Below are positions 19,845 through 41,572 of a DNA stretch of 64,000 bases, in pieces; position 1 is the first letter of the stretch; every line of letters starts with the position of its first letter. Below the pieces are notes generated by a model. The model saw only the letters and a program-made list of their open reading frames with translations, ran no database searches and had not been told where the DNA came from. Both the position numbers and the translations under genes were made by a program. The stretch spans positions 352,001 to 416,000 of the forward strand of contig CAVPSJ010000004.1 in the NCBI GenBank assembly GCA_963708295.1, written 5' to 3'. The stretch is from an uncultured delta proteobacterium. Its GTDB lineage: Bacteria; Desulfobacterota; BSN033; UBA1163.

Positions 19845-20897
19845 ATGTGGGATTTTTTCAAAAAGAGAACATTAACCGGGCTCTCCCGCACCTGTGGCTG
19901 AGCGGCGAAAATTGGTCCGACGGATCTGTCGGACGCACTCAAGGCACTGCATTCCTCGCACGATCCCAACCTATTGGTAGGTTTTGAAACCTGCGATGAT
20001 GCAGCTGTTTATCGCCTGTCGGATAATATTGCCTTTATCAGCACAGTGGACTTCATCACACCCCCGATGGATGACCCTTACTGGTTTGGACAGATCGCCG
20101 CTGCCAATGCATTATCGGATGTCTATGCCATGGGAGGCAAACCTCTCACAGCTCTGAATCTTGTTATGTTTCCGACGAAGAAACTCGATTCGAGTCTTCT
20201 TAAGGAGATACTGCGGGGAGGATGCGATAAGGTATCCGAGGCAGGGGCTTCTATCGCAGGCGGACATTCGGTAGATGACAATGAACCGAAGTATGGTCTG
20301 GCGGTAACAGGAGTGGTTCATCCGGACCGCATCCTGACGAATTGCGACGCGAGAGAAGGCGACGTATTGATCCTGACCAAACCTATTGGTACAGGTGTCT
20401 TGTTTAATGCCTGCCGATCTAAGAAACTACCCTGGCATGATTTAGAAGTGATTCTCCCCGAGGTGGCTTCTCTCAATAAGAAAGCGATAGAAATCGGCTT
20501 GAACTTTGAAGTCCATGCCTGCACCGATATCACGGGTTTTGGGATCCTTGGACATTCTCTGGAGATGGCAAAAGGGAGTGGAGTCCAAATCAATCTTTTC
20601 TATGACAAGCTTCCGCTCTATCCAAATGCCCTTCAGATGTATCGCAAGGGCCAGACAACGGGAAGCAATAAGGCCAACAGAAGATTGGCTGAAGGGCTCT
20701 TTAAGAAAAAAAGAGAGCTTTCCGAAGAAGAAGAGGAATTACTCTTTGATCCTCAGACTTCCGGGGGACTTCTGCTTTCTGTTCCTTCAACCGAGGCGGA
20801 CCGGCTCGTCACTGAATTGAAAAGAGCCGGTATAGAGGCTGCTGCCCGGGTCGGTGAAGTGGTTTCGGGCCCACCGCCGTGCATTTGCATTATTTGA
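19845..20897 (+). CDS. selD: selenide, water dikinase (selenophosphate synthetase), selenoprotein with Sec at codon 19
   Basis: ATG 19845 reads MWDFFKKRTLTGLSRTCG-U(TGA 19899)-AAKIGP in frame with ORF 19974..20897 (DDAAVY, DFITP, NALSDVYAMGG, DPQTSGGLL). Confidence 0.93.
19915..19934 (+). promoter_or_regulatory. SECIS-like hairpin of selD
   Basis: GTCCGAC-GGATCT-GTCGGAC, 13 nt after the in-frame TGA. Confidence 0.7.
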
Positions 20898-27868: not shown

Positions 27869-29165
27869 TCATTCCTTTATTGAGACCAAACGATGCCTTG
27901 GATCGCTCCCGTTAAATGAGGGCGCACCATCCAGTTCCTTTTTGTTCAGCCGGGTAGAAACCATCCCCATCAAGAAGGGTGAGACCATGGTCAACCCGGC
28001 TCCCACGAGGACCGCAATGCTAAAGAACTGAGGAGTCAACACACCGCGCGAAAATAGGTACGCAGCAATCACGATCCCCATTTCGCCTTGAGCCAAAACT
28101 CCAAACAGGATGAAGACCCGCTCGCGCGATGATGAATACTCTTTATTTGCAGCTATCCGGCATCCGATCAGTTTTGTACCAATGACAACGATTAGTAGAA
28201 CTATCAAAAAAAGGGTGAAACCTTGGATCGCTTTGACATTCACCTCCAGGCCAATGACCACGAGCAGAATTGCCACTGGGATCGAAGCCAGAACGGATTC
28301 AAATCCCTTGGCAAGTTTTTCTTTTGCCCCCGGGTTTGACGCTCCAAGCAGCCCTCCTCCCAGGGAGGCAACTCCCACAGCAGCAAAACTTCCAAAATGC
28401 ATCGCTGCCCATGCATACAACGAAGCGACCAACAAGAGATATCCAATGAGTATTTGTCTGGGTCTTTTTTGAAAACCAGATTTCGAAGATAGTTTCAGAA
28501 ATCGTGAAGTCAGAAAGTATGCGACAGCAAAAAACATAATGAGCTTCGCTAAGAACCATGACACAGCGATGGTCATCTTAAATGGTCCATAGGTCACAGC
28601 ATAATTCGTCGCCTGGCTGGCAATCATCAACAGAATTGCCAACAAGCCACTCGAAGATGGCCGCTCCCGATACGAGGACCGCAGCCCGCGAACCAAGGAT
28701 CTTCATCTCACTGAAGTAATAAATTGAAATTCCAAAACTTGAGGCTGATAGGATCGCGCTCATTGCCAGGGCTTCTGACCAGCGATCCACAAACAGTCGT
28801 GTGAGGATCGCAACACTCACCGCAGTCAAACCAAATTCCCAAGCACCCACGGAAAAAGAAAGTTTCAGTATTTTTTTCAGCTCACGCCAATCCACCTCCA
28901 GACCGGCCAGAAACATCAGTTGAATCAGCCCAATCTCGGCAAGGATTTTCAAAGCGCTATGGAGCGGACCGGAAGAAGGGCTTCCCCAGGTCCCAAGAAC
29001 CATGGGAACTCCTAAAACATTAAACACAGAGGGGCCGAGAAGAATCCCGATCAGGAGTTGAATACTGATGCTGGACAGGCCAAATCGCCTTGCCAGGATG
29101 GCTGCTATCCTTGCTACCACGATGACGACAATCAAAATAATGATCCACAGGGGAAATGCTTCCAT
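27869..29165 (-). CDS. cation:proton antiporter (CPA2/Na+-H+ exchanger family), frameshift near 28655
   Basis: GILLGPS, LAEIGLIQLMFLAGLE, and QGEMGIVIA in the second frame; multiple TM segments. Confidence 0.75.
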
Positions 29166-29252
29166 AGCTTTAGACTTCTCCGTCCCCAACCGCGCCGTCG
29201 CCAAAGCGCCTATCTGCATCAAGCGCTTCGGCCAAGTCAGGTTGTGGCTGTT

Positions 29253-29347: not shown

Positions 29348-32300
29348 CTATGTTGGGCTGCCAGCTGCTCGATCTAATTGTTTCTTCAATCCAAAGTTCC
29401 ATTTCCAGATGGCGTAGATGGCAGGATAAACACATAATTCCATAATGAACGATGTGAAGATTCCGCCGATCATCGGCGCGGCAATACGCTTCATGGTATC
29501 GGCGCCGCTGCCCACTGACCACATGATCGGAACGAGACCCATGAACATCACACCCACGGTCATCACCTTAGGCCGAAGTCGCTTCACCGCACCTTCGACA
29601 ATCGCCTCCCGGAGATCATTCCAATTCCTCATCTTCCCTTTCGCTCGGGCCTCGTCGAAGGCGAGATCAAGGTAGAGGAGCATGAACATTCCGGTTTCTG
29701 CATCGACACCCATTAAAGCGATCAGACCCACCCAGACGGCAATACTCGTGTTGTATCCGAGCCAATAGAGAAACCAGATCGCCCCGACGGCTGAGAAGGG
29801 AACAGCCAGGAAGATGATAATCGTTTTAGTGATCGACCGGGTATTGAAATAGAGAAGCAGAAAGATTAGGAAAATGGTGATAGGAACAACAACCATGAGA
29901 CGCTCATTGACGCGCTCCATCAACTCAAATTGGCCGCTCCAGATCAGTTCGTAGCCGGGTGGAACCTGTAAATTCGCTCTGACCACTTTTTTGGCATCTG
30001 CCACGTAGCTGCCAACATCGCGTTTCGAGGTGTCGAGATCAATCCTTACATAACCTGAAAGTCGCCCATTCTCGTCGCGGATCATACCAGGGCCTGTCTT
30101 CATAGAGATTTCAGCGATCTCTGTAATGGGCACATGGGCCACCCCTGGGCCGGCTGTTCCTCCTGCCCCTCCCATCCCACCGCTTATGCCTCCTGATGGA
30201 CTTGGACCACCCGGCCGGATAGGGACAAGAACCCTTCTGAGCTTTTCTATATCATCCCGAAGCCCCCTGAAATACCGAACATTGACCGGATACCGTTCTC
30301 GTGCCTTCGATCGTGGTCGTGACGTTTTCACCCCCTATCGCCGACATCACAATGCTGTTGGCTTGGTCGATGGTTAGACCATAGCGAGCCAGTTCCGGGC
30401 GTTTGAGCGTAAAGTCGAGGAAGTAGCCGCCGGCAGTCCGTTCAGCAAAAACACTTTTTGTACCCGGCACATCTTTCAATAACATCTCAATGTGCTCACC
30501 CAACTGCTGGATTTTCTCTAAATCCGCTCCCATAATTTTGATCCCAACCGCCGTTGGAATCCCTGTTGAAAGCATGTCAATGCGGGCTTTGATGGGATAC
30601 GTCCAGCTGTTGGTGACCCCTGGAAATCTCATCTTTTCGTCGAGACCCCCTGGACCATAAATCAATTCGTCGGGAGTCTTGCGATCTCGCCAGAACCTGC
30701 CAAGGATTTTCTTCAGCCATTCGGGCGCCCAAGAAGAATACCATCGAGCCTTGATTGGCCATTTCGATTCGGGCTTGAGAAGGATCACCGTTTCCATCAT
30801 CGAAAAGGGAGCTGGATCGGTCGCTGTTTCTGCGCGCCCCGCCTTCCCAAAAACAAGATCGACTTCGGGAAACGTCTTTAATACCTTATCCTGAACCTGG
30901 AGCAATTTTTGTGCTTCGGTGACAGAGATGCCGGGGAGTGTCATCGGCATGTAAAGCAAGTCACCCTCGAAGAGGGGAGGCATAAATTCCTTACCGAGCT
31001 TTTTATAGATTGGATAGGTGGCGATCACGATGAGCACCGCAATAATCACTGTGACCCATCTGAATTTGAGCACAAACTCGCAAACGGGATGGTAGACCTT
31101 CATCAACGGCCGGCTGATGGGATGGGTCTCTTCGCTGTGGATCTTCCCGACTAAGAAGGCATTGACGATCCGGCACAGGAAGTTGGGCTTAAACTTGTAA
31201 GGGTCCATATGGGTAAAGAGCAATCGGATCGCCGGGTCGAGCGTAATCGCCAGAACGGCAGCGATGGCCATGGAGAAATTCTTCGTAAAAGCCAGGGGCT
31301 TGAAGAGACGACCCTCCTGCCCTGCCAGGGTGAAGACTGGCATGAATGAGACGGCAATGACCAGAAGGGCAAAAAAGCTCGGTCCACCTACTTCTTTGAC
31401 TGCGTTGATCACCACATCTTTGTAACTGCCCGGTCTGCCGGCTGCGTCCCAGTGTTCCAGTTTCTTATGGGTTTGCTCGACGACGACAATGGCTGCATCA
31501 ACCATGGCGCCGATCGCAATAGCAATGCCGCCGAGGCTCATGATGTTGGCCGTCAGTCCCATCAAATACATCGGGACGAAGGCGATGATGATCGTAATCG
31601 GGATGGTGATAATGGGAACAAGGGCAGAGGGGATGTGCCAGAGGAAGATCATGATCACGATGCTGACAATTATGAGTTCTTCAAGCAGAGTATCTTTGAG
31701 TGTCTCAATCGCACGCTCGATCAACGAGGCGCGATCATAGGTGGTAACGATTTCGACCCCGGGAGGAAGCGATGTCTTCATCTCTTCAAGTTTTTCTCGG
31801 ACTCGTTCAATGACCTTGAGCGCGTTCTCTCCAAAACGCATGATGACGATGCCACCAACAACCTCCCCTTCTCCATTGAGGTCAGCAACCCCCCGCCTGA
31901 TGTCAGGGCCCAACCCAACCATTCCGAGGTCCTTCACGAGTATCGGAGTACCGCCCGTTCGACTGGTGCCCACGACGATGTTTTCGACATCGGAAACCTT
32001 CTTAATGTAGCCGATGCCACGGACCATATATTCCAGCCCGGAAAACTCAACCAACCTTCCACCGACATCATTGTTTCCTGCCCGTACCGCTTCGATCACT
32101 CGATCGATGGAAATGTTGTAAGCCACCAGTTTATTGGGGTCCACGTTCACCTGATACTGCTTGACAAACCCGCCGACGGGTGCAACCTCGGCCACTCCCG
32201 GCACCGCCTGCAACGCATACCGAAGATGCCAATCTTGAAAAGAGCGCAACTGGGAGAGATCGTTCTTACCTGTCTTGTCGACGAGGGCATACTGGAACAC

Positions 32301-32711
32301 CCATCCAATGGCTGTCTCGTCGCGAGCCAGCTCGACGTTGACCCCCTGGGGAAGGCGAGGCAGGATGTTACTCAAATATTCGAGGGTTCGTGAGCGGGCC
32401 CAGTAGATATCCGTTCCATCCTCAAAGATGATATAGACGTAAGAGTAGCCGAAATCGGAAAATCCCCGGATGTCCTTAACCTTCGGTACGCCCAGGAGGG
32501 CCGAGACGATCGGATAAGTGACCTGATCTTCCATGATATCAGGGCTGCGGTCCCATCGAGAGTAAATGATGACCTGGGTATCTGAAAGATCAGGGATTGC
32601 ATCGAGCCTGATATTCTTGATGGAGTACAATCCCCATAACACGGCCATTCCAATAAAGAGGAAAACGATGAATTTATTATGGGCACACCACTCAATCAGC
32701 TTGTTGATCAT
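29348..32711 (-). CDS. cusA: CusA/CzcA-family heavy-metal RND efflux permease (frameshift near 30300)
   Basis: DAIPDLSDTQVI, GAMVDAAIV, Met triad region (EFMP...LYMP, FSMMET, RIDML), KRLRPKVMT. Confidence 0.9.
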
Positions 32712-32867
32712 TAAAGCCTCCAAAGAAGAGAAACAGTTCGGAGTGATTCGTCCGCCTGCCTGCAACAGGGAGGGAGTTCGGAGTGTTTAGTTTCAAAGAT
32801 CCGAACTCTGACAGAATTTCAAATTCCAAAATCCGCAATTGTTCATCTATTTTCCGTATCCCGCATG

Positions 32868-35925: not shown

Positions 35926-36219
35926 TCATCCCCGGGGAATAAAGTTTGGACTTAAATATTCAGGAGGATGAAAGATCGAATTTACCAACCCATCGCTTAA
36001 CAGCAGCATTTTGGCTGGAATGAGAAGGCCGTTAAATGGAAGGCTTGAAATTTCTGAGACAACGATATCCACAATCATCGGACAGTGAAATGGAACTCCG
36101 CAATCCATCTTCATATTCCCCGAGTGATTTTCCTCCGGGCATCCATCCATGTGAAACACGGGGGCATAGGACAAAAGGATTCCGATAACAAGGAGGCATC
36201 CTATGGTTTTCATATCCAT
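35926..36219 (-). CDS. small secreted Cys/His/Met protein with C-terminal IFHPP motif
   Basis: Hydrophobic N-terminus, HMDGC...H...MKMDC...FHC, SIFHPP; RBS GGGAGA. Confidence 0.6.
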   Translation of the reverse strand: MDMKTIGCLLVIGILLSYAPVFHMDGCPEENHSGNMKMDCGVPFHCPMIVDIVVSEISSLPFNGLLIPAKMLLLSDGLVNSIFHPPEYLSPNFIPRG

Positions 36220-36259
36220 TTTCTCCCATCCAAAAGGAGATAGCCTTTGACCGACCTGC

Positions 36260-36282
36260 TAAACCTTTAGGGGGGTGAAGGT
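36260..36282. promoter_or_regulatory. G6-tract operator, copy 2
   Basis: TAAACCTTTAGGGGGGTGAAGGT, 22/23 identical to copy 1; overlaps the cysM stop codon. Confidence 0.55.
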
Positions 36283-37313
36283 GTTAACTTCGGGTGTTCA
36301 ACGGAGAACCGTATTTTCTGTCTTTCACAACCAGGGCAGTACTCAGGATATCGCTCCCCTCCATCCGGAAAAATTGTTACAATCACACCCCGGTCAATCG
36401 ACTCTGCCAACTTCAATGAGGCCCAGAAAGCAGCACCCGAAGAAGGCCCTACCCAGAGACCTTCCTCCTTTGTCAGACGGATCATCATCTCGTAAGCATC
36501 TTCTGTTTTAACAAAGAATGTCCCATCCAGGATGGATTCGTCATAAATCCCCGGACGGATGGCGGTTTCAATATGCTTCAACCCTTCTATCCCATGGAAA
36601 CCGCTGTCCGGTTGAACCCCGAAGACTCTCATTTTGGAGTTATACTCCTTCAACCTTCTCCCTGTGCCCATCACTGTACCCCCTGTCCCAACACCTGCGA
36701 TGAAATGGGTCACTCGCCTCTTGCTCTGATGCAGAATCTCCAATCCTGTGCTTTCATAGTGGGCCCGCCAGTTGGATGGGTTATTATACTGGTCTGCCTT
36801 AAAGTACTGATTGGGATTTGATTCATAGATTTCTCTGGCTTTCAGAAGAGCTCCATCTGAACCCATCAAAGGATCTGTGAAGATCAGTCTCACACCATAG
36901 GCTTCCAGAGCTTTCTTTCTCTCCTCGCTCACATTGGCAGGAACGACCAGTTCCACGCGATACCCTTTGATCGCCCCAATCATCGCATAAGCGATCCCTG
37001 TGTTCCCCGAAGTGGAATCAAGGATGATCTTTCCCCGGGTCAGCTCGCCAGATCGTTCTCCATCTTCGATAATCCTCAGGCCGGCCCGATCCTTGACAGA
37101 CCCTCCAGGATTGAGCCATTCCGCTTTTGCAAAAATCTGAACTCCTCTCAGGTGCTTGGTCACGCGGCAGATCTGTATCAGAGGTGTATTTCCAATGAAG
37201 GTAAGCAGGGAATCTGGATTTGCACTCCTTATATCTTTTCGGTCCTGCAAGACATCCCTGATTTGAAGGGCTTCCATCAATCCATCCTTTGTCTGCAATC
37301 CGGCGTTAGCCAA
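36267..37313 (-). CDS. cysM: PLP-dependent cysteine synthase, CysM type (probably sulfur-carrier dependent)
   Basis: NPGGSVKDR, STSGNTG, GVGTGGT, GIEGLK, GERY; operonic with mec/moeB/cysO. Confidence 0.85.
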   Translation of the reverse strand: MANAGLQTKDGLMEALQIRDVLQDRKDIRSANPDSLLTFIGNTPLIQICRVTKHLRGVQIFAKAEWLNPGGSVKDRAGLRIIEDGERSGELTRGKIILDSTSGNTGIAYAMIGAIKGYRVELVVPANVSEERKKALEAYGVRLIFTDPLMGSDGALLKAREIYESNPNQYFKADQYNNPSNWRAHYESTGLEILHQSKRRVTHFIAGVGTGGTVMGTGRRLKEYNSKMRVFGVQPDSGFHGIEGLKHIETAIRPGIYDESILDGTFFVKTEDAYEMMIRLTKEEGLWVGPSSGAAFWASLKLAESIDRGVIVTIFPDGGERYPEYCPGCERQKIRFSVEHPKLTPSPP

Positions 37314-37707
37314 TCACGTCGATCTCCTCAAGGTAGATGGCTTCTTTCTCAATCTGGAAAGCTTTCACCACTGGATTTTTCTCCTCTTTTAAAGAGATGA
37401 TGATGGAGGAGACATCCGGATAGAAAGTCAATTTCACATCGGTCTCAGACGGGAATGGAATCGTATGAGGATGGGAATGATAGATGGCAACCATTCTCAT
37501 CGATTCCTTTTCCATTTCCTCAAAGACCTTCATTTGCTCTTGTGGAGACATGGAATAGAGAACCGGACTTTCCTCCGTATTCCGAAGTTCGAAAGACTTT
37601 TGGACGGTTTTATCCTTCCCGCTTAAAATCCCGCAGCACTCTAAGGGCCACTCCCTTTTCGCATGGTCCACCATTTCTTGAAAAATCGTTTTGGGAATGC
37701 GAATCAT
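37306..37707 (-). CDS. mec: JAMM/M67 metallopeptidase (Mec-like, sulfur-carrier processing)
   Basis: PLECCG, YHSHP...PSETD JAMM motif. Confidence 0.88.
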   Translation of the reverse strand: MIRIPKTIFQEMVDHAKREWPLECCGILSGKDKTVQKSFELRNTEESPVLYSMSPQEQMKVFEEMEKESMRMVAIYHSHPHTIPFPSETDVKLTFYPDVSSIIISLKEEKNPVVKAFQIEKEAIYLEEIDVIG

Positions 37708-37721
37708 TGAAAAACCCTTTT

Positions 37722-38705
37722 CTAATGGCCGGGCGGCGGACCTGTTTCAATACTCTCGCTTGCCCTGCTCCACTCGATCCATGAACCATCATAGTTATGG
37801 AGCTTCTCCAAGGGATAACCGACCAAATAGAGGCTCACCAAACTGTGAGCCGAGCGCACCCCGGAGTGTCAGTAGAGGTAAATGTCTTTTTCCGGTGTGA
37901 CTCCTCTGGCGGAAAAGGTTTTCTTAATCTCTTCTGCCGATTTCCAGTAGCCCTTATAAGGCCCTTCCTCCAAAATCGCCTCTTTCCATTCAATCCAGGT
38001 AACCCCGGGAATGCGGCCACCTTGGGTAGCACCTTTCTTTATCTCTTCGCCCACATATTCCTTCTTGGTGCGGACATCTAAGACAATTCTACCGGGTCTT
38101 TTCAATGCCGACTTGACCTCCGGCAAGGTGCAAAACAACGGTTTTCGTCCTTCCGTCTCCCCCTGGAGCTTGAATCTCGTCTTCTCCAGTTGGGCGGGTA
38201 TTACCTCAAGGGGATGGCCCTTTGCTTTCCAACCATCAATGCCCCCATCAAGAAGTTTCATCTGTTTCAGGGGAAATCCATAGTAGGCAAGAATCCACCA
38301 AAGCCTCGCATGGTCATACAGATCCGAATAGATGATCAGGGTATTCTTCTCACGGATCCCCAGGTTTCCCAAAAGCGCTTCCATCTGGGGTTGGGGAGCC
38401 ATCATCCCGGGGATGGGATGATTTTTATCCTCCATATCCGGACGCCACACCTGGACGGCTCCTGGAATATGGCCGCTGAGATACTGAAGTTTCTCGCGTA
38501 CGTCGATGATTCGAATTTTGGGGTCTTTTTTCTGAACAAGGGCATTAAGTTCATCGGGCTGGATAATCATTTCTGGATGAGCATATCCTCCGTTGGGAAC
38601 GGCATGGGAGGCTTGGGTTAAGGAGATAAGAAACAAGGCTAGGGCGAATATCAAAGCAAATGTCCTGGTCCGTTTTATAGGCGTCTTAGATTCCTCGCCA
38701 ATCAT
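37722..38705 (-). CDS. two-domain rhodanese/sulfurtransferase, selenoprotein (Sec279), with N-terminal signal peptide
   Basis: GHIPGA, LDGG, GRIPG; DIYLY-U(TGA 37869-37871)-HSGVRSA continues in frame to YDGSWIEWS...PPGH-TAG at 37722 (327 aa). Confidence 0.88.
37832..37851 (-). promoter_or_regulatory. SECIS-like hairpin of the sulfurtransferase
   Basis: GGCUCAC-AGUUUG-GUGAGCC, 17 nt after the UGA. Confidence 0.65.
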
Positions 38706-38724
38706 TGAACCCGTCCCGATTTCC

Positions 38725-39936
38725 TTAAACGGCCGCCTGGCTTGTCGTCTCCAAGCTGCATGTATGCTGATAATCGGCCAGTCCCGTTATTTTCGGTTTC
38801 CCATTACAAAGGGGGCATGATGGATTTTTTCTGATCTGAAACGTTTTGAATTCCATTTCCAGGGATTGGTACATCAAGAATTGGCCGATCAGGGGTTTCC
38901 CTTTTTTCAAAATCAACTTGATCGCTTCGGTAGCCTGAATCAATCCGACTTGCCCGGGCACAACTCCCAGGACACCTGCTTCGTCTCAGCTGGGGACCAG
39001 ACCCGGCGGGGGAGGTTCAGGAAAGAGACAGCGCAAACACGGCCCTCCCTCTTTTGGAAAAAAGACACTGGCCTGGCCTTCAAATTGAAAGACGCCTCCA
39101 TAAATATAAGGCTTCCCGGTAAAGAAAGAAGCGTCGTTGACGAGATATTTCGTTGGGAAATTATCAGATCCATCAATGATGATATCGTACCCTTGAAAAA
39201 TCTCGAGAGCATTCTCCGGAGTCAATCGCTTTTGATAAGTCTCAACTTTTACATCGGGATTAATTCGATGAATGGCCTCTTTGGCTGATTCAGTCTTTGG
39301 CCTTCCCACATCAGACAAGCCGTGCAATATCTGCCGCTGGAGGTTGGTCAAATCCACTTTGTCCGAATCAATAATCCCAAGGGTTCCTACTCCCGCAGCA
39401 GCCAGATAAAGAGCGGCCGGACACCCCAGCCCTCCCGCACCGACCAGAAGGACTTTTGCATTTAACAGTCGAATCTGTCCTTCCATCCCGACGTCTTTAA
39501 GCAGAAGGTGCCGGCTATACCGGCTGAGTTGATCGGGCGTTAATTCGGAATCGCTCACCACTTCATAGCCAGCCGCCTTCCAACCATCGATCCCTTTGGC
39601 CATGGACAAGACATGGGTATACCCTTTTTCCTTCATCAACTTGGCAGCGGCGAGTGAACGGATACCTCCTGCGCAGTAAACGACCACGGAGGCATTCTTA
39701 TCAGGCAGCAGGGTCTCCACCTTTTCGCCTAAGAGGGCTTGAGCAAGGAAAGTTGCTCCCTGAATATATCCAAGCGCTATCTCCTCCTTCTCCCGGATAT
39801 CGAGGAGGACAACGGGCCCCTTTTTTTGAAGGAGTTGACGGGCCTCCTCAACAGAGACTTCGGAACCTTGTCTCTTGGCCTTGATGATAAACCAATCTTT
39901 GAAGGCAGTGATTGTCTTCAACGTTCCTATTTTCAT
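38725..39936 (-). CDS. moeB: rhodanese-MoeB/ThiF (E1-like) adenylyltransferase fusion, selenoprotein (Sec317)
   Basis: N-terminal rhodanese (YCAGGIRS), RYSRH, GAGGLG, NLQRQ, CLRC; PPPGLVPS-U(TGA 38986-38988)-DEAGVLG joins ORFs 38986..39936 and 38725..38961 in frame; distal CPLC. Confidence 0.9.
38951..38974 (-). promoter_or_regulatory. SECIS-like hairpin of moeB
   Basis: UGUCCUGGG-AGUUGUG-CCCGGGCA (one bulge), 11 nt after the UGA. Confidence 0.55.
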
Positions 39937-39972
39937 TTGATACCCTCGTTTCTCTCCGTATGATGCGGAGAG

Positions 39973-40263
39973 TCACCTTTCCACCGAAGAACCACCGGCA
40001 ATGGCCGGGATGATAGAAATCTGATCCCCTTCTTTCAAAGGGGTCTCCAAGTTCCGGATGAATCGGATATCTTCGTCATTGACATAGATGTTGATGAATC
40101 GCCTCACCTCGCCCTTTTCATCCCTGAGTCTTTCTTCAAGCCCAGGATAAGTGTCCGTCAACGATCGAAGCACTTCTCCAACTGTATTCCCTTGCGACCT
40201 AATCACATCCTGTTCCCCGGCCAATTTCTTCAACGGGGCAGGGATTCGAACATGGACTTGCAT
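39973..40263 (-). CDS. MoaD/ThiS/CysO-type ubiquitin-like sulfur carrier with C-terminal extension
   Basis: MQVHVRIPAPL...FINIYVNDEDIRF...IIPAIAGG-SSVER; RBS GGAGGA before ATG 40263. Confidence 0.9.
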   Translation of the reverse strand: MQVHVRIPAPLKKLAGEQDVIRSQGNTVGEVLRSLTDTYPGLEERLRDEKGEVRRFINIYVNDEDIRFIRNLETPLKEGDQISIIPAIAGGSSVER

Positions 40264-40517
40264 GCTTTCCTCCATCATAGACTTGGTTTCAGTCAATTTT
40301 CTTAGAGTTTTGCTTTCTTGATTTCTCATTCAAAGCACGCTGTGACTTCATATTGTTTCATTTTTTATTTCGAATTCTAAAAAAAGTACTTTATAAAAAT
40401 TATCAAGAAATAGCTTACAAAAAATGGGAAATTACAAATTTCCCCCTTTAATTTACACAAAAGTAACCGCAACTATTTAGAATATAAGAAGTTATAAATA
40501 ATTCATATCTTTTTTTT

Positions 40518-40546
40518 ATGCTACCATTGTTTATAAAATATGTCAA
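40518..40546 (-). promoter_or_regulatory. sigma70-like promoter of the sulfur-carrier operon
   Basis: TTGACA-17 nt-TAGCAT with a TG extension. Confidence 0.55.
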
Positions 40547-40554
40547 GAAGAAAA

Positions 40555-41019
40555 CTAAATATAATACATAAACCTCTTATCAAAATCCTTCTTAATTCCC
40601 ATTTCTTTAGCCAGGTTGCAAAGGTCCCTAACCGTTACAGAATCAAAATATTCTCTTAATCTTTTTCCTGCTTCATTCCAAACAATTTGAGTCACGCATT
40701 CACCTGATCTTTCACATGGTTGGGATGAGCCCCCTTCGTCAACGCAACGAACCGGGTTTATACTACCCTCTGTGATTTGGACGATTTCGCGAATGGTAAT
40801 ATCTTCGGGTTTTTTCCCCAAAAAATAGCCACCCGAAGGGCCCCTTTTGCTCCGAACTACTCCCGCTCTTTTTAGTTTCTGGAAGATCTGTTCCAAATAG
40901 CGCTGAGATATTCCCTGTCTTCGAGAGATGTCCTTGACCTGCGTTTCTAATCCTTCGGAATGATAGGCAATATCGAAAATAGCTCTTACCCCATATCGGC
41001 TTTGCGTGGATAGTCTCAT
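40555..41019 (-). CDS. Rrf2-family regulator (IscR/CymR-like, three Cys)
   Basis: MRLSTQSRYG, YLEQIF, SKRGPSGGY, C...C...C cluster ligands. Confidence 0.9.
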   Translation of the reverse strand: MRLSTQSRYGVRAIFDIAYHSEGLETQVKDISRRQGISQRYLEQIFQKLKRAGVVRSKRGPSGGYFLGKKPEDITIREIVQITEGSINPVRCVDEGGSSQPCERSGECVTQIVWNEAGKRLREYFDSVTVRDLCNLAKEMGIKKDFDKRFMYYI

Positions 41020-41043
41020 TCTACGTAAAACCTTTCAGATTTC

Positions 41044-41075
41044 CTTATAATATTCCTGATGAAAATTGTCAAGAA
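41044..41075 (-). promoter_or_regulatory. sigma70 promoter overlapped by an Rrf2/IscR-like inverted repeat
   Basis: TTGACA-17-TATAAG; inverted repeat TTCTTGA-N9-TCAGGAA (41053-41075). Confidence 0.6.
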
Positions 41076-41162
41076 AAATCTTTTCTGGGAAAGGTGAGCA
41101 CATTTTTCAAAAGGGAGTAAAAAAGGGTTGTTTACAGGGCCATCCTTTTTTATAATGATTGT

Positions 41163-41366
41163 ATGCGGAAACCTGATTTCGAACAGTTCGAAGCAACCTC
41201 TCTTTACTGTCCTCGGTGCAAAGCAGCGGTCCCCGTGAGGAAGAGGTTGCTTCTGGTCTTACCCGAAGGGGACGAATACGAGTATCTGTGTGCCTATTGC
41301 TCCTCGTCGGTAGGGACCAAAACTGACAAGAATGCCCCCCAGATCGATATGATTATAAAACCCTGA
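41163..41366 (+). CDS. small zinc-ribbon protein
   Basis: CPRC...CAYC in 67 aa. Confidence 0.6.
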   Translation: MRKPDFEQFEATSLYCPRCKAAVPVRKRLLLVLPEGDEYEYLCAYCSSSVGTKTDKNAPQIDMIIKP

Positions 41367-41572
41367 CCTTTTGAATAACGTTCTTACGAGAATCAATTCA
41401 CCGGTGACCCATCTCTCCCGGGACAGGATTCGCATGGAGCGGTTAATCAAACCACCCTCCGCCGTGCACGGAGTGGGGTCGCGAGTTAAGGGCAGAGTGA
41501 GAAAAGGGCCGGTGAGCCGCCGTACAAAGCCTCGGAGAGTAATGGGAAGGGTCGTCCTTCGTCCGACCCTCT

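Follow-up and report, generated by a model that had tools for sequence, protein, structure and literature searches.

The window, that is, the whole stretch of 64,000 nucleotides that was analysed, carries an operon on its minus strand in which rrf2 is followed by a ThiS/MoaD-type carrier gene, a rhodanese-MoeB fusion, a two-domain rhodanese, a JAMM peptidase and CysM, as assigned with Pfam and NCBIfam. The gene order, the coordinates and the positions of two in-frame TGA codons had been proposed in a first-pass annotation of the same DNA; profile searches and translations reproduced all of them. The genes and the elements preceding the carrier are as follows.

40555..41019, minus strand: Rrf2-family regulator, IscR/CymR-like (Pfam Rrf2, 134 bits)
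40546..40518, minus strand: promoter-like site TTGACA-17-TAGCAT, between rrf2 and the carrier gene (consensus scan)
40444..40426, minus strand: perfect 8+8 palindrome GGGAAATTTGTAATTTCCC, between rrf2 and the carrier gene (whole element 40426..40546)
39973..40329, minus strand: ThiS/MoaD-family sulfur-carrier protein (Pfam ThiS, 68 bits)
38725..39936, minus strand: rhodanese-E1 fusion, MoeB/MoeZ-like adenylyltransferase/sulfurtransferase, predicted selenoprotein (Pfam ThiF, 288 bits; Rhodanese, 62 bits)
37722..38705, minus strand: two-domain (SseA/TST/MST-type) rhodanese, predicted selenoprotein (Pfam Rhodanese, two stretches, 107 bits)
37306..37707, minus strand: JAMM/Mec-type zinc metallopeptidase (Pfam Prok-JAB, 83.7 bits)
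36267..37313, minus strand: CysM-like PLP-dependent (O-phospho/acetyl)serine sulfhydrylase (Pfam PALP, 226 bits)

The regulator contains a C-x-C-x-C motif resembling a cluster ligand (CVDEGGSSQPCERSGEC); it scores above the cut-off of the NCBIfam model rrf2_super and below those of IscR (128 bits) and CymR (94 bits). Twelve promoter-like sites were counted between rrf2 and the carrier gene, against 7.8 ± 2.7 in shuffled sequences, and because these counts are close the promoter call is weak. The conserved portion of the carrier begins near Met18 (40278). Its Gly-Gly pair (39996..39991) is followed by a five-residue tail, SSVER, and a TGA stop (39975..39973). The carrier passes the NCBIfam models SAMP1 (72 bits, cut-off 60) and moaD_arch (53.7 bits, cut-off 49.5). 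The JAMM peptidase displays the HxHx7SxxD motif, HSHPHTIPFPSETD, from residue 77. The CysM-like protein has the PLP-lysine motif SVKDR at residue 72 and reaches 365 bits with NCBIfam cysM TIGR01138, just below the cut-off of 394. Its best solved relatives are the E. coli and Salmonella CysM (221 bits), ahead of M. tuberculosis CysM (3dki/3dwg, 193-194 bits). Because it is nearer to the enterobacterial than to the mycobacterial enzyme and stays under the cysM cut-off, its use of a thiocarboxylate is suggested by gene context only.

The features that concern selenocysteine and protein export are located as follows.

38986..38988, minus strand: TGA read as Sec317 (PS-U-DEAGVLG), at the Cys position of the E1 adenylation domain (alignment; single in-frame TGA)
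38953..38971, minus strand: SECIS-like hairpin in the E1 gene, with the loop AGUUGUG closed by a 6-bp stem (CCUGGG/CCCGGG) that begins 14 nt past the UGA
37869..37871, minus strand: TGA read as Sec279 (LY-U-HSGVRS), at the active-site Cys position of the C-terminal rhodanese domain (alignment; single in-frame TGA)
37832..37851, minus strand: SECIS-like hairpin in the two-domain rhodanese gene, with the loop AGUUUG closed by a 7-bp stem (GGCUCAC/GUGAGCC) that begins 17 nt past the UGA
38705..38601, minus strand: signal-peptide-like N-terminus of the two-domain rhodanese, residues 1-35 (...LTQASHA/VPNGGY; custom script)
19845..20897, plus strand: Sec-type selenophosphate synthetase selD (TIGR00476, 375 bits, one TGA within the match)

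The E1 protein consists of an N-terminal rhodanese domain (residues 28-122), with Cys88 encoded at 39675..39673, and a ThiF domain (residues 140-375) with CxxC motifs at residues 300 and 374. In the column of its TGA, U is found in 15 orthologues and C in all five more distant homologues aligned, while rhodanese-MoeB genes of other families have U in five cases and C in 11. The TGA is retained in 15 of the 25 genomes of the family, these 15 being independent genome bins; contigs from RNA libraries that cover it derive from relatives and could reflect DNA carry-over. In one other family (G072), the rhodanese-domain Cys of E1 is also encoded by TGA, hence either catalytic position of the enzyme can be Sec. 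In Chaetomium Uba4 (CtUba4, PDB 6yub), the residue aligned to U317 is the Cys in TSCGEAG, and we infer that position 200 of the 6yub_A SEQRES is the 'Cys202' of PMC11662940. As described there, Cys202 is the only thioester site of the Uba4 adenylation domain, and thiocarboxylation needs both Cys202 and the rhodanese-domain Cys (PMC11662940). By this alignment, U317 corresponds to the Cys with which Uba4 forms its thioester.

The column of the TGA in the two-domain rhodanese contains U in six orthologues, whereas the 13 paralogues have C in 12 cases and S in one; a further orthologue is frameshifted and lacks a residue at this position. The correspondence between TGA and Cys anticipated by the first-pass annotation is therefore borne out in both proteins. 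This TGA is kept in 6-7 related genomes, and the gene, wherever present, adjoins that of Sec-MoeB. It occurs at only six of the 14 related Sec-MoeB loci, one of the other eight being cut by a contig end. As an add-on, the two-domain rhodanese is optional, and its gene is in tight linkage with that of E1. Its best NCBIfam matches, 3-mercaptopyruvate sulfurtransferase (3-MST, 108 bits) and ExtH (81 bits), are both below cut-off. The N-termini were scored by a custom script for n-region charge, core hydropathy and a small-x-small site, rather than by a trained predictor. All six orthologues combine a basic n-region (net charge +1 to +6), a 12-residue hydrophobic core (mean hydropathy 1.6-3.2) and small-x-small sites such as SHA/VP and AHA/VP, followed by a conserved mature start, (V/I)PNGGY. 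In addition, 12 of the 13 Cys paralogues have a signal-peptide-like N-terminus, in which the leader varies while the start of the mature protein is conserved. Judging from these features, the protein most likely reaches the periplasm by export, and it probably collects sulfane sulfur, as thiosulfate or polysulfide, outside the cytoplasm.

Both selenoprotein frames stay open past the TGA with family motifs, as previously noted, and the essential second Zn-binding CxxC of E1 (residue 374) is located downstream of U317. The loops of both SECIS-like hairpins begin with AGUU. Across 14 orthologues the E1 stem is invariant while adjacent synonymous sites vary, and the rhodanese hairpin is invariant across six orthologues except for one loop base. 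Codon entropy among orthologues averages 0.185 over the E1 hairpin, against a median of 1.21, and 0.093 over the rhodanese hairpin, against a median of 0.955; these are the lowest values of 45 and 20 windows of codons, respectively. The genome to which the window belongs (91% complete) encodes selA, selB, tRNA-Sec (selC, 81 bits) and two Sec-type selD, all above family cut-offs. The selD in the window has its own TGA at 19899..19901 (SRTCG-U-AAKIGP) with a hairpin downstream, and lies ~15-18 kb from the operon. The first-pass annotation had seen a SECIS-like hairpin in both genes and a nearby selD, and had named selA/selB/selC as genes to check for. Taken together, the two genes very probably encode real selenoproteins.

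Comparison with the 14 related loci indicates how the window operon may have arisen. The rrf2 gene is found at 13 of them, and the remaining one (L068) begins within the cluster. Nine of the 14 encode a ThiS-NIL fusion as the carrier and, ahead of it, a MetM-like paralogue of threonine synthase. Relative to these, the window operon has lost both the NIL domain and the MetM-like gene, by clean deletions. The window contains no MetM-like gene, and the best match in its genome is only 31% identical, with no close copy. The window operon is a cut-down form of the relatives' cluster, and the SSVER tail is not a designed one but the scar left where the NIL domain was deleted in frame. The NCBIfam models cannot separate the threonine-synthase-family gene from ThrC, so that the name MetM-like rests on its context, beside a sulfur-carrier gene. 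Since nine of the 14 loci share the ThiS-NIL carrier and the MetM-like gene, the ancestral cluster probably had a part in both homocysteine and cysteine synthesis, and the present cluster of the relatives probably makes homocysteine too. Three related loci retain only rrf2 and Sec-MoeB, without carrier, JAMM peptidase or CysM. The E1 is therefore not tied to CysM alone. The sole carriers found in the genomes of these three loci are 27-32% identical, which implies that the E1 either has a different partner or is able to use one. In another family, an E1 of the same type (Sec or Cys) lies behind Rrf2-MetY-MetX-MetW at four of 16 loci.

Thiocarboxylate-dependent cysteine synthesis in Mycobacterium tuberculosis uses CysO, MoeZ(R), Mec and CysM, and the gene set of the window is consistent with this logic. 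We consider it probable that the operon is an Rrf2-controlled system of the same kind, making cysteine via a protein thiocarboxylate, with a selenoester on the Sec of E1 and an exported, optional rhodanese. Starting from the observed gene content, recoding signals, residue homology, deletions and distribution among relatives, we infer the following chemistry. Both TGA codons would be decoded as selenocysteine by SelB and the downstream hairpins. The JAMM peptidase would cut SSVER off the ThiS-like carrier and expose Gly-Gly, after which the rhodanese-E1 fusion would adenylate the carrier. Attack of Sec317 on the adenylate would yield a selenoester; Cys88, in the rhodanese domain of the E1 itself, would carry a persulfide that resolves this ester, giving the carrier thiocarboxylate. 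CysM would convert the latter into a carrier-cysteine adduct, from which the JAMM peptidase would release cysteine. Overall, the context of a cysteine operon suggests a role for the previously unstudied "selenoprotein MoeB".

The place of the two-domain rhodanese is the point at which another reading has the most to offer. The protein could be cytoplasmic, or face the cytoplasm at the inner membrane, and pass sulfane sulfur to E1 as Tum1/MPST does to Uba4/MOCS3, so that both Sec residues would act on one carrier-charging path. Its best NCBIfam match, although below cut-off, is a 3-mercaptopyruvate sulfurtransferase, and Tum1 either supplies the rhodanese domain of Uba4 with sulfur or stands in for that domain (PMC11662940). 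The constant adjacency to the E1 gene and the feeding of Uba4 by Tum1 count against a periplasmic location and in favour of such a direct relay. It is nevertheless unlikely, as it has to accommodate the signal-peptide-like N-termini of all six orthologues and of 12 of the 13 Cys paralogues. Because of these N-termini, the presence of the gene at just six of 14 loci (one of the other eight being cut by a contig end) and the E1's own rhodanese domain with Cys88, carrier charging is unlikely to depend strictly on the Sec-rhodanese, which is probably not a direct sulfur donor to E1. Of the complete selenium relay put forward in the first-pass annotation, the selenoproteins and the pathway gene set are supported, whereas the part assigned to the Sec-rhodanese is unlikely. 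It is very unlikely that the carrier, E1 and JAMM peptidase form a ubiquitin-like conjugation system of the SAMP/UbaA/desampylase type, beside or instead of a sulfur-carrier role, with Sec317 as the (seleno)ester site. In its favour, the carrier passes SAMP1, the JAMM peptidase matches desampylase (77.8 bits, cut-off 130) and E1 matches the SAMP-activating E1 model, both below cut-off, and the Sec residue is the one through which E1 enzymes form a thioester (PMC11662940). However, the cluster is bound to CysM, the MetM-like gene and an Rrf2 regulator, neither conjugation targets nor E2-like genes turned up, and the rhodanese domain of E1 points to sulfur transfer.

Databases label the E1 as a MoeB for molybdopterin synthase, which would make the CysM neighbourhood incidental. 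This agrees with its NCBIfam assignment (PRK08762 MoeB, 514 bits, cut-off 449) and with the selenoprotein surveys, which place the family under molybdopterin synthesis (PMC1088965, PMC9312934, PMC13188914). Yet none of the 84 neighbouring ORFs scanned at 16 loci of other families matches a Moco-synthesis Pfam family, and the window operon contains no Moco-synthesis gene. One family instead repeatedly has CysM and the MetM-like gene as neighbours, another MetY/MetX/MetW, and the genome has a second, Cys-type MoeB/ThiF gene (41% identity), all of which renders the label highly improbable as a function. As for the TGAs being stops, pseudogene lesions or sequencing errors that leave truncated proteins, the best 120 database matches of E1 are 308-328 residues long and 117 of them end at 315-316, in line with the truncation by standard gene callers that the first-pass annotation expected. 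Moreover, single-sequence folds of the hairpins are no better than those of shuffled sequences (z = 0.66 for E1, -0.02 for the rhodanese), and an Rfam search gave no SECIS match for either. Against this, the TGA recurs at the same codon in 15 independent bins for MoeB and 6-7 for the rhodanese with conserved frames intact downstream, synonymous sites are frozen in both hairpins, the second CxxC of E1 follows the TGA and the genome holds a complete Sec machinery. Truncation is scarcely credible.

The preferred reading, cysteine synthesis through a carrier thiocarboxylate, can be set against known systems. Like the CysO-MoeZ-Mec-CysM system, the window groups in a single cluster a Gly-Gly carrier, a rhodanese-fused E1, a JAMM peptidase and a PLP enzyme of the CysM type. 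In contrast to MoeZ, where the rhodanese domain is C-terminal, that of the window E1 is N-terminal, and the protein falls outside the MoeZ equivalog (NF005902, 414 bits, cut-off 647); by analogy, it may nevertheless work like MoeZ. Other differences from the CysO system are the selenocysteine in place of the adenylation-domain Cys, the predicted trimming of the carrier, the additional Rrf2 regulator and Sec-rhodanese (predicted to be exported), and the host, an anaerobic Syntrophaceae-like bacterium instead of M. tuberculosis.

In Streptomyces, thiocarboxylate-dependent homocysteine synthesis relies on MetM/MetO/Mec/MoeZ (Table 2 of PMC13759103). In the relatives of the window, similarly, the gene just ahead of the carrier encodes a threonine-synthase paralogue, and E1 and JAMM peptidase are present as well. 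The NIL domain at the C-terminus of their carrier may set it apart from MetO, and in the window the MetM-like gene has been lost. The window E1 also resembles Uba4 of the Uba4-Urm1 system in having both an adenylation-domain Cys/Sec position and a persulfide-type rhodanese-domain Cys (PMC11662940), but its domain order is reversed and Sec replaces Cys. Eukaryotic Tum1, a two-domain rhodanese, acts upstream by feeding Uba4 (PMC11662940), whereas that of the window looks exported; the product of the window system would feed amino-acid synthesis, and that of Uba4-Urm1 serves tRNA thiolation.

Sec-MoeB and Sec-rhodanese themselves have been listed selenoprotein families since 2005, in line with the first-pass annotation: the Sargasso Sea survey and later reviews include 'molybdopterin biosynthesis MoeB' and 'rhodanese-related sulfurtransferase (UxxG)' (PMC1088965, PMC9312934, PMC13188914). 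The window proteins resemble these Sec-containing ThiF/MoeB proteins and PF00581 rhodaneses with a U-x-x-G active site. The passages of these papers that list MoeB, under molybdopterin synthesis, give no Sec motif, residue role or gene context. In agreement with the earlier statement that no characterised example is known, our literature search found no paper tying a Sec-MoeB to a thiocarboxylate pathway. Compared with the listed families, the new elements are the proposed link of Sec-MoeB to thiocarboxylate-dependent cysteine and homocysteine synthesis, the mapping by alignment of its Sec to the nucleophile position of E1, and the predicted export of the Sec-rhodanese.

Six minus-strand genes are arranged head to tail between 41019 and 36267 of the window, and the names they receive in Pfam and NCBIfam agree with the set proposed in the first-pass annotation (rrf2, carrier, MoeB, rhodanese, JAMM and CysM):

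41019..40555, minus strand, Rrf2 regulator (Pfam and NCBIfam agree)
40329..39973, minus strand, ThiS/MoaD-family carrier (above cut-off in the SAMP1 and archaeal MoaD models)
39936..38725, minus strand, rhodanese-ThiF/MoeB fusion, hereafter MoeB or E1 (Pfam and NCBIfam agree)
38705..37722, minus strand, two-domain rhodanese (Pfam and NCBIfam agree)
37707..37306, minus strand, Prok-JAB/JAMM peptidase (motif HSHPHTIPFPSETD)
37313..36267, minus strand, CysM-like PLP enzyme (SVKDR motif present)

The E1 passed the MoeB model PRK08762 with 514 bits (cut-off 449) and scored 414 bits against the MoeZ model, under its cut-off of 647; the CysM-like gene, at 365 bits, stays below the cysM cut-off of 394. 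The Rrf2 protein carries a three-Cys motif resembling that of the cluster-binding members of its family, and it probably ties expression of the operon to sulfur or Fe-S status. Between a promoter-like site and the carrier gene there is a perfect palindrome, GGGAAATTTGTAATTTCCC (40426-40444), with a T-run after it, which may serve as an Rrf2 operator or an attenuator; a promoter and terminator scan gave counts close to those of shuffles. Divergent from rrf2, an ORF of 67 aa (41163-41366, plus strand) without a Pfam match has two CxxC pairs (CPRC...CAYC) and is zinc-ribbon-like.

The flanks are unrelated to the operon. Upstream is a cell-division and peptidase cluster; downstream, a small Cys/His/Met-rich ORF precedes a CusCBA-type efflux system. 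This ORF (35926-36219, minus strand, 97 aa) starts 47 nt after CysM with a signal-peptide-like sequence and has no match in Pfam or NCBIfam; its counterpart trails the Sec-MoeB cluster (MoeB with a TGA-encoded selenocysteine) in 9 of 14 related loci, directly after MoeB where the locus is reduced to rrf2 and Sec-MoeB. Further on, an AcrB/CusA-type RND pump (29348-32765, minus strand) is split into two ORFs of 837 and 327 aa, and a Na+/H+ exchanger (27869-29222, minus strand) into two overlapping ORFs of 214 and 275 aa, which may reflect frameshifts, assembly errors or decay.

Two of the operon genes contain a single in-frame TGA, at 38988..38986 in MoeB (U317, where U is selenocysteine) and at 37871..37869 in the rhodanese (U279). 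A six-frame search for both genes over 40 related genomes found a MoeB copy of at least 68% identity with one in-frame TGA in 15 of the 25 family genomes, counting the window's own and the frameshifted copy of G008. A TGA-bearing rhodanese copy of at least 60% identity was found in 7 genomes, one copy being broken, and MoeB adjoins it in every case. The correspondence between TGA and Cys claimed earlier was recovered in both alignments: the MoeB column holds U in 15 rows and C in all 5 more distant homologues, and the rhodanese column U in 6 rows and, among 13 paralogues, C in 12 and S in 1, the residue being missing from the frameshifted copy. The rhodanese column marks the active site of the C-terminal domain (U-H-S-G-V-R-S). 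At the equivalent position the N-terminal domain is without a Cys, and two-domain rhodaneses usually lack one there. Beyond the TGA, conserved family sequence goes on in both proteins, as their open frames had indicated. A MoeB product ending at the TGA would miss a structural motif, the second Zn-binding CxxC, which is found past it at aa 374. The suspicion that gene callers fail here is borne out for MoeB, whose annotation is thereby corrected: 117 of the best 120 database matches stop at the Sec codon (315-316 aa).

A hairpin follows each TGA, and a selD gene lies in the window, as the first-pass annotation had reported for both:

38971..38953, minus strand, hairpin after the MoeB TGA, CCUGGG-AGUUGUG-CCCGGG
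37851..37832, minus strand, hairpin after the rhodanese TGA, GGCUCAC-AGUUUG-GUGAGCC
19845..20897, selD, with one TGA

Folding of the 64 nt past each TGA as single sequences was no better than shuffles (z 0.66 and -0.02), and Rfam, scanned over 36000..41500 with E up to 1, gave no SECIS family; its one match, ylbH at 20 bits, is put down to chance. At the codon level, the seven codons of the MoeB hairpin have a mean entropy of 0.185, where the median over windows of the whole gene is 1.21 (14 orthologues), the hairpin value being the lowest among 45 comparable windows; the rhodanese hairpin has 0.093 against 0.955, the lowest of 20 windows (6 orthologues). Base variation is confined to the loops. 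This codon conservation reflects selection on the RNA, as expected of a SelB-binding element. In addition, the genome contains selA, selB, tRNA-Sec (81 bits) and two selD genes with one TGA each, so that the selA/selB/selC set sought in the wake of the annotation is present. An alternative genetic code is ruled against by the TGA codons that end the carrier gene and other ORFs here. Given the hairpin selection, the sel genes and the conserved TGA columns, a sequencing error, a pseudogene or a plain stop at these codons is very unlikely. Regarding public runs, the fraction of sampled window words present in any run was at most 0.26. Contigs from two DNA-library and two RNA-library runs, which belong to relatives and not to the host, were compared at 85% likeness; among the listed differences of these relatives' contigs none falls at either TGA, and 287 more lie outside the list. 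RNA-library contigs span the MoeB TGA and not the rhodanese TGA; DNA carry-over is possible. None of these run data are taken as evidence of expression or habitat.

U317 aligns with the Cys of TSCGEAG in Chaetomium Uba4 (6yub), the best solved relative; we take this Cys (SEQRES position 200) to be the Cys202 of the papers. According to the available part of PMC11662940, the adenylation-domain Cys of Uba4 is the residue that attacks the adenylate of Urm1, no other site forms the thioester under physiological conditions, and thiocarboxylation needs both this residue and the rhodanese-domain Cys. The second catalytic residue is matched in the window E1 by Cys88 of the N-terminal rhodanese domain (VVYCAGGIRS). 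Hence, as judged from the alignment, the selenocysteine of the E1 occupies the nucleophile position, which is thioester-forming in Uba4. Across 400 further genomes, sampled evenly from the phylum, there were 30 matches to the whole rhodanese-E1 architecture, 14 with an in-frame TGA (9 from the window's family, 5 from three other families) and 16 without. The TGA falls in the same column in all 5 other-family E1s and in G011, G020 and G023, the three of the eight non-window family members in the sample whose column was looked at. In one other-family genome, G072, the rhodanese-domain Cys of the E1 is encoded by TGA too: this locus (L084, G072:C67:1238-2374), where TGA stands both at the rhodanese active site (VVY-U-ASGLRS) and in place of the E1 Cys, may encode a double selenoprotein.

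The named relatives are Syntrophaceae/Thermodesulfobacteriota genome bins, and Sec-MoeB is present in all 14 related loci. Of the other genes, JAMM occurs in 10, CysM in 7 and Sec-rhodanese in 6; rrf2 and Sec-MoeB stand alone in 3 loci and are joined by JAMM only in 2, and one locus, L063, stops at a contig edge just past MoeB, with its downstream genes outside the contig. In 9 loci, the place between rrf2 and the carrier is taken by a gene of the threonine-synthase family whose product has an N-terminal zinc ribbon, and the carrier of the same loci is a ThiS domain fused past Gly-Gly to a NIL domain (for example L061:1843-2355 and L064:4400-4936, Pfam ThiS and NIL). DNA comparison with these relatives revealed two clean deletions in the window. 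The first leaves ~68 nt in place of ~1257 nt holding the threonine-synthase paralogue, of which the genome has no close copy (best match 31% identical). The second leaves ~40-65 nt in place of ~264 nt holding the NIL domain. The carrier ending GG-SSVER described earlier is indeed present, but its tail is a deletion scar, since its codons GTG GAA AGG (VER) correspond to a VER close to the C-terminal end of the L061 NIL domain:

39976-39990, minus strand, deletion scar in the carrier tail

By these comparisons, the cluster is under remodelling within a single genus. Elsewhere, the NIL domain is familiar from MetN, the methionine importer. As JAMM would need to remove it from the carrier, methionine-dependent control of carrier maturation is conceivable. 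The TGA stop of the window carrier (39973-39975, minus strand) shares its frame with the MoeB start, which comes 37 nt later, and read-through would give a 537-aa carrier-E1 fusion; no hairpin follows this TGA and the carrier gene of relatives ends in TAA, so the frame match is probably a coincidence.

The available portions of the Sargasso Sea selenoprotein survey and of later reviews (PMC1088965, PMC9312934, PMC13188914) place Sec-MoeB under molybdopterin synthesis. The gene contexts say otherwise. In the window's family, CysM and MetM-like genes (the latter being the threonine-synthase paralogues) cluster with the E1, and in 4 of 16 other-family loci an E1 of the same type (2 Sec, 2 Cys) lies directly behind Rrf2-MetY-MetX-MetW; ThiC is beside the E1 in 2 of the 16. 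None of 84 scanned neighbour ORFs matches a Moco-synthesis Pfam family; these comprise 69 of 133 picked ORFs, a set leaving out the picks from L080 and L091 and the ORFs farthest from the E1, and our own selection of 15 from those two loci. Furthermore, the window's genome has another, ordinary Cys-type MoeB/ThiF (41% identity). Against this reading, the E1 is not tied solely to this carrier and CysM, because the three reduced loci keep Sec-MoeB intact with its hairpin, and carriers only 27-32% identical were found elsewhere in their genomes (G004, G006 and G009), as in G003 and G010, where no Sec-MoeB was found. The search for CysM elsewhere in these five genomes, all from the genus, yielded only CysK/M paralogues of at most 48% identity.

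The free-standing Sec-rhodanese, encoded between MoeB and JAMM, is predicted to be exported. By sequence features, not a trained predictor, all 6 orthologues begin with a tripartite signal peptide: a basic n-region (net charge +1 to +6), a hydrophobic core of 12 residues (mean hydropathy 1.6-3.2) and a small-x-small site (SHA|VP, THA|VP, AQA|VP, AHA|VP, AHA|IP or SWG|IP). The leader is variable and conservation begins at (V/I)PNGGY. A signal-peptide-like start is also found in 12 of 13 Cys paralogues. An exported enzyme cannot pass sulfur directly to a cytoplasmic E1, which makes doubtful the complete relay put forward initially, in which both selenoproteins charge the carrier. Although the rhodanese gene is strictly adjacent to that of the E1, and a two-domain rhodanese, Tum1, is able to supply the rhodanese domain of Uba4 or to stand in for it (available part of PMC11662940), we consider direct transfer from Sec-rhodanese to E1 unlikely in view of the predicted export. 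In three genomes of the genus (G004:C18, G006:C33 and G010:C2), a Cys-type, signal-peptide-bearing paralogue of the two-domain rhodanese has a CysK/M paralogue ~7 kb away that shares 45-48% identity with the window CysM, and the two form a second rhodanese-cysteine synthase neighbourhood.

What is shown is the parts of the operon; the chemistry that we infer for them runs as follows. JAMM would trim the carrier tail, the E1 would adenylate Gly-Gly and Sec317 would form a selenoester; the Cys88 persulfide would then attack it to give an acyl disulfide, resolved to the thiocarboxylate. CysM would make a carrier-cysteine adduct, from which JAMM would release cysteine. Selenocysteine surpasses Cys both as a nucleophile and as a leaving group, and at position 317 it would speed both of its steps. 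Once exported, the Sec-rhodanese would act beyond the cytoplasm to mobilise sulfane sulfur. Whether this is the first natural E1-type enzyme to work through a selenoester is, in our estimate, evenly balanced. It is highly improbable that the cargo is selenium and not sulfur, handed on by Sec-rhodanese and Sec-E1 through Se-Se or Se-S intermediates to a carrier selenocarboxylate that CysM (in relatives also the MetM-like enzyme) would convert to free selenocysteine or selenohomocysteine; if true, selenium amino acids would have a dedicated, protein-bound route of their own, apart from tRNA-bound Sec synthesis.

Both Sec-MoeB and Sec-rhodanese are listed in the surveys, as stated at the outset, and "selenoprotein MoeB" has figured in selenoproteome lists since 2005, in their available portions without a mapped residue role. 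Within titles and abstract openings, we found no published account of a Sec-E1 in a thiocarboxylate amino-acid pathway (survey supplements may hold gene-context tables), of Sec mapped to the E1 thioester position, of two neighbouring selenoprotein genes in a thiocarboxylate operon or of Sec-rhodanese export, nor, in the NIL, ThiS, sulfur-carrier and homocysteine literature, of a ThiS-NIL fusion. The E1 gene sits in Rrf2-controlled cysteine/homocysteine clusters in one family and next to MetY/MetX/MetW in another. Together, Sec at the nucleophile position, these cysteine and homocysteine contexts and the remodelling raise a list entry to a hypothesis open to test, namely that anaerobic syntrophs in wetlands and sediments make amino acids with a sulfur carrier loaded by a selenoester-forming E1. 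The ThiS-NIL pro-carrier and the predicted exported Sec-rhodanese are themselves worth study. The CysO thiocarboxylate pathway is already in print. So is the MetO pathway (available part of PMC13759103), and the threonine-synthase paralogue beside carrier, E1 and JAMM in the relatives recalls its Streptomyces MetM/MetO/Mec/MoeZ route to homocysteine (Table 2 of that paper), a likeness that rests on context since NCBIfam models do not separate the MetM-like gene from ThrC.
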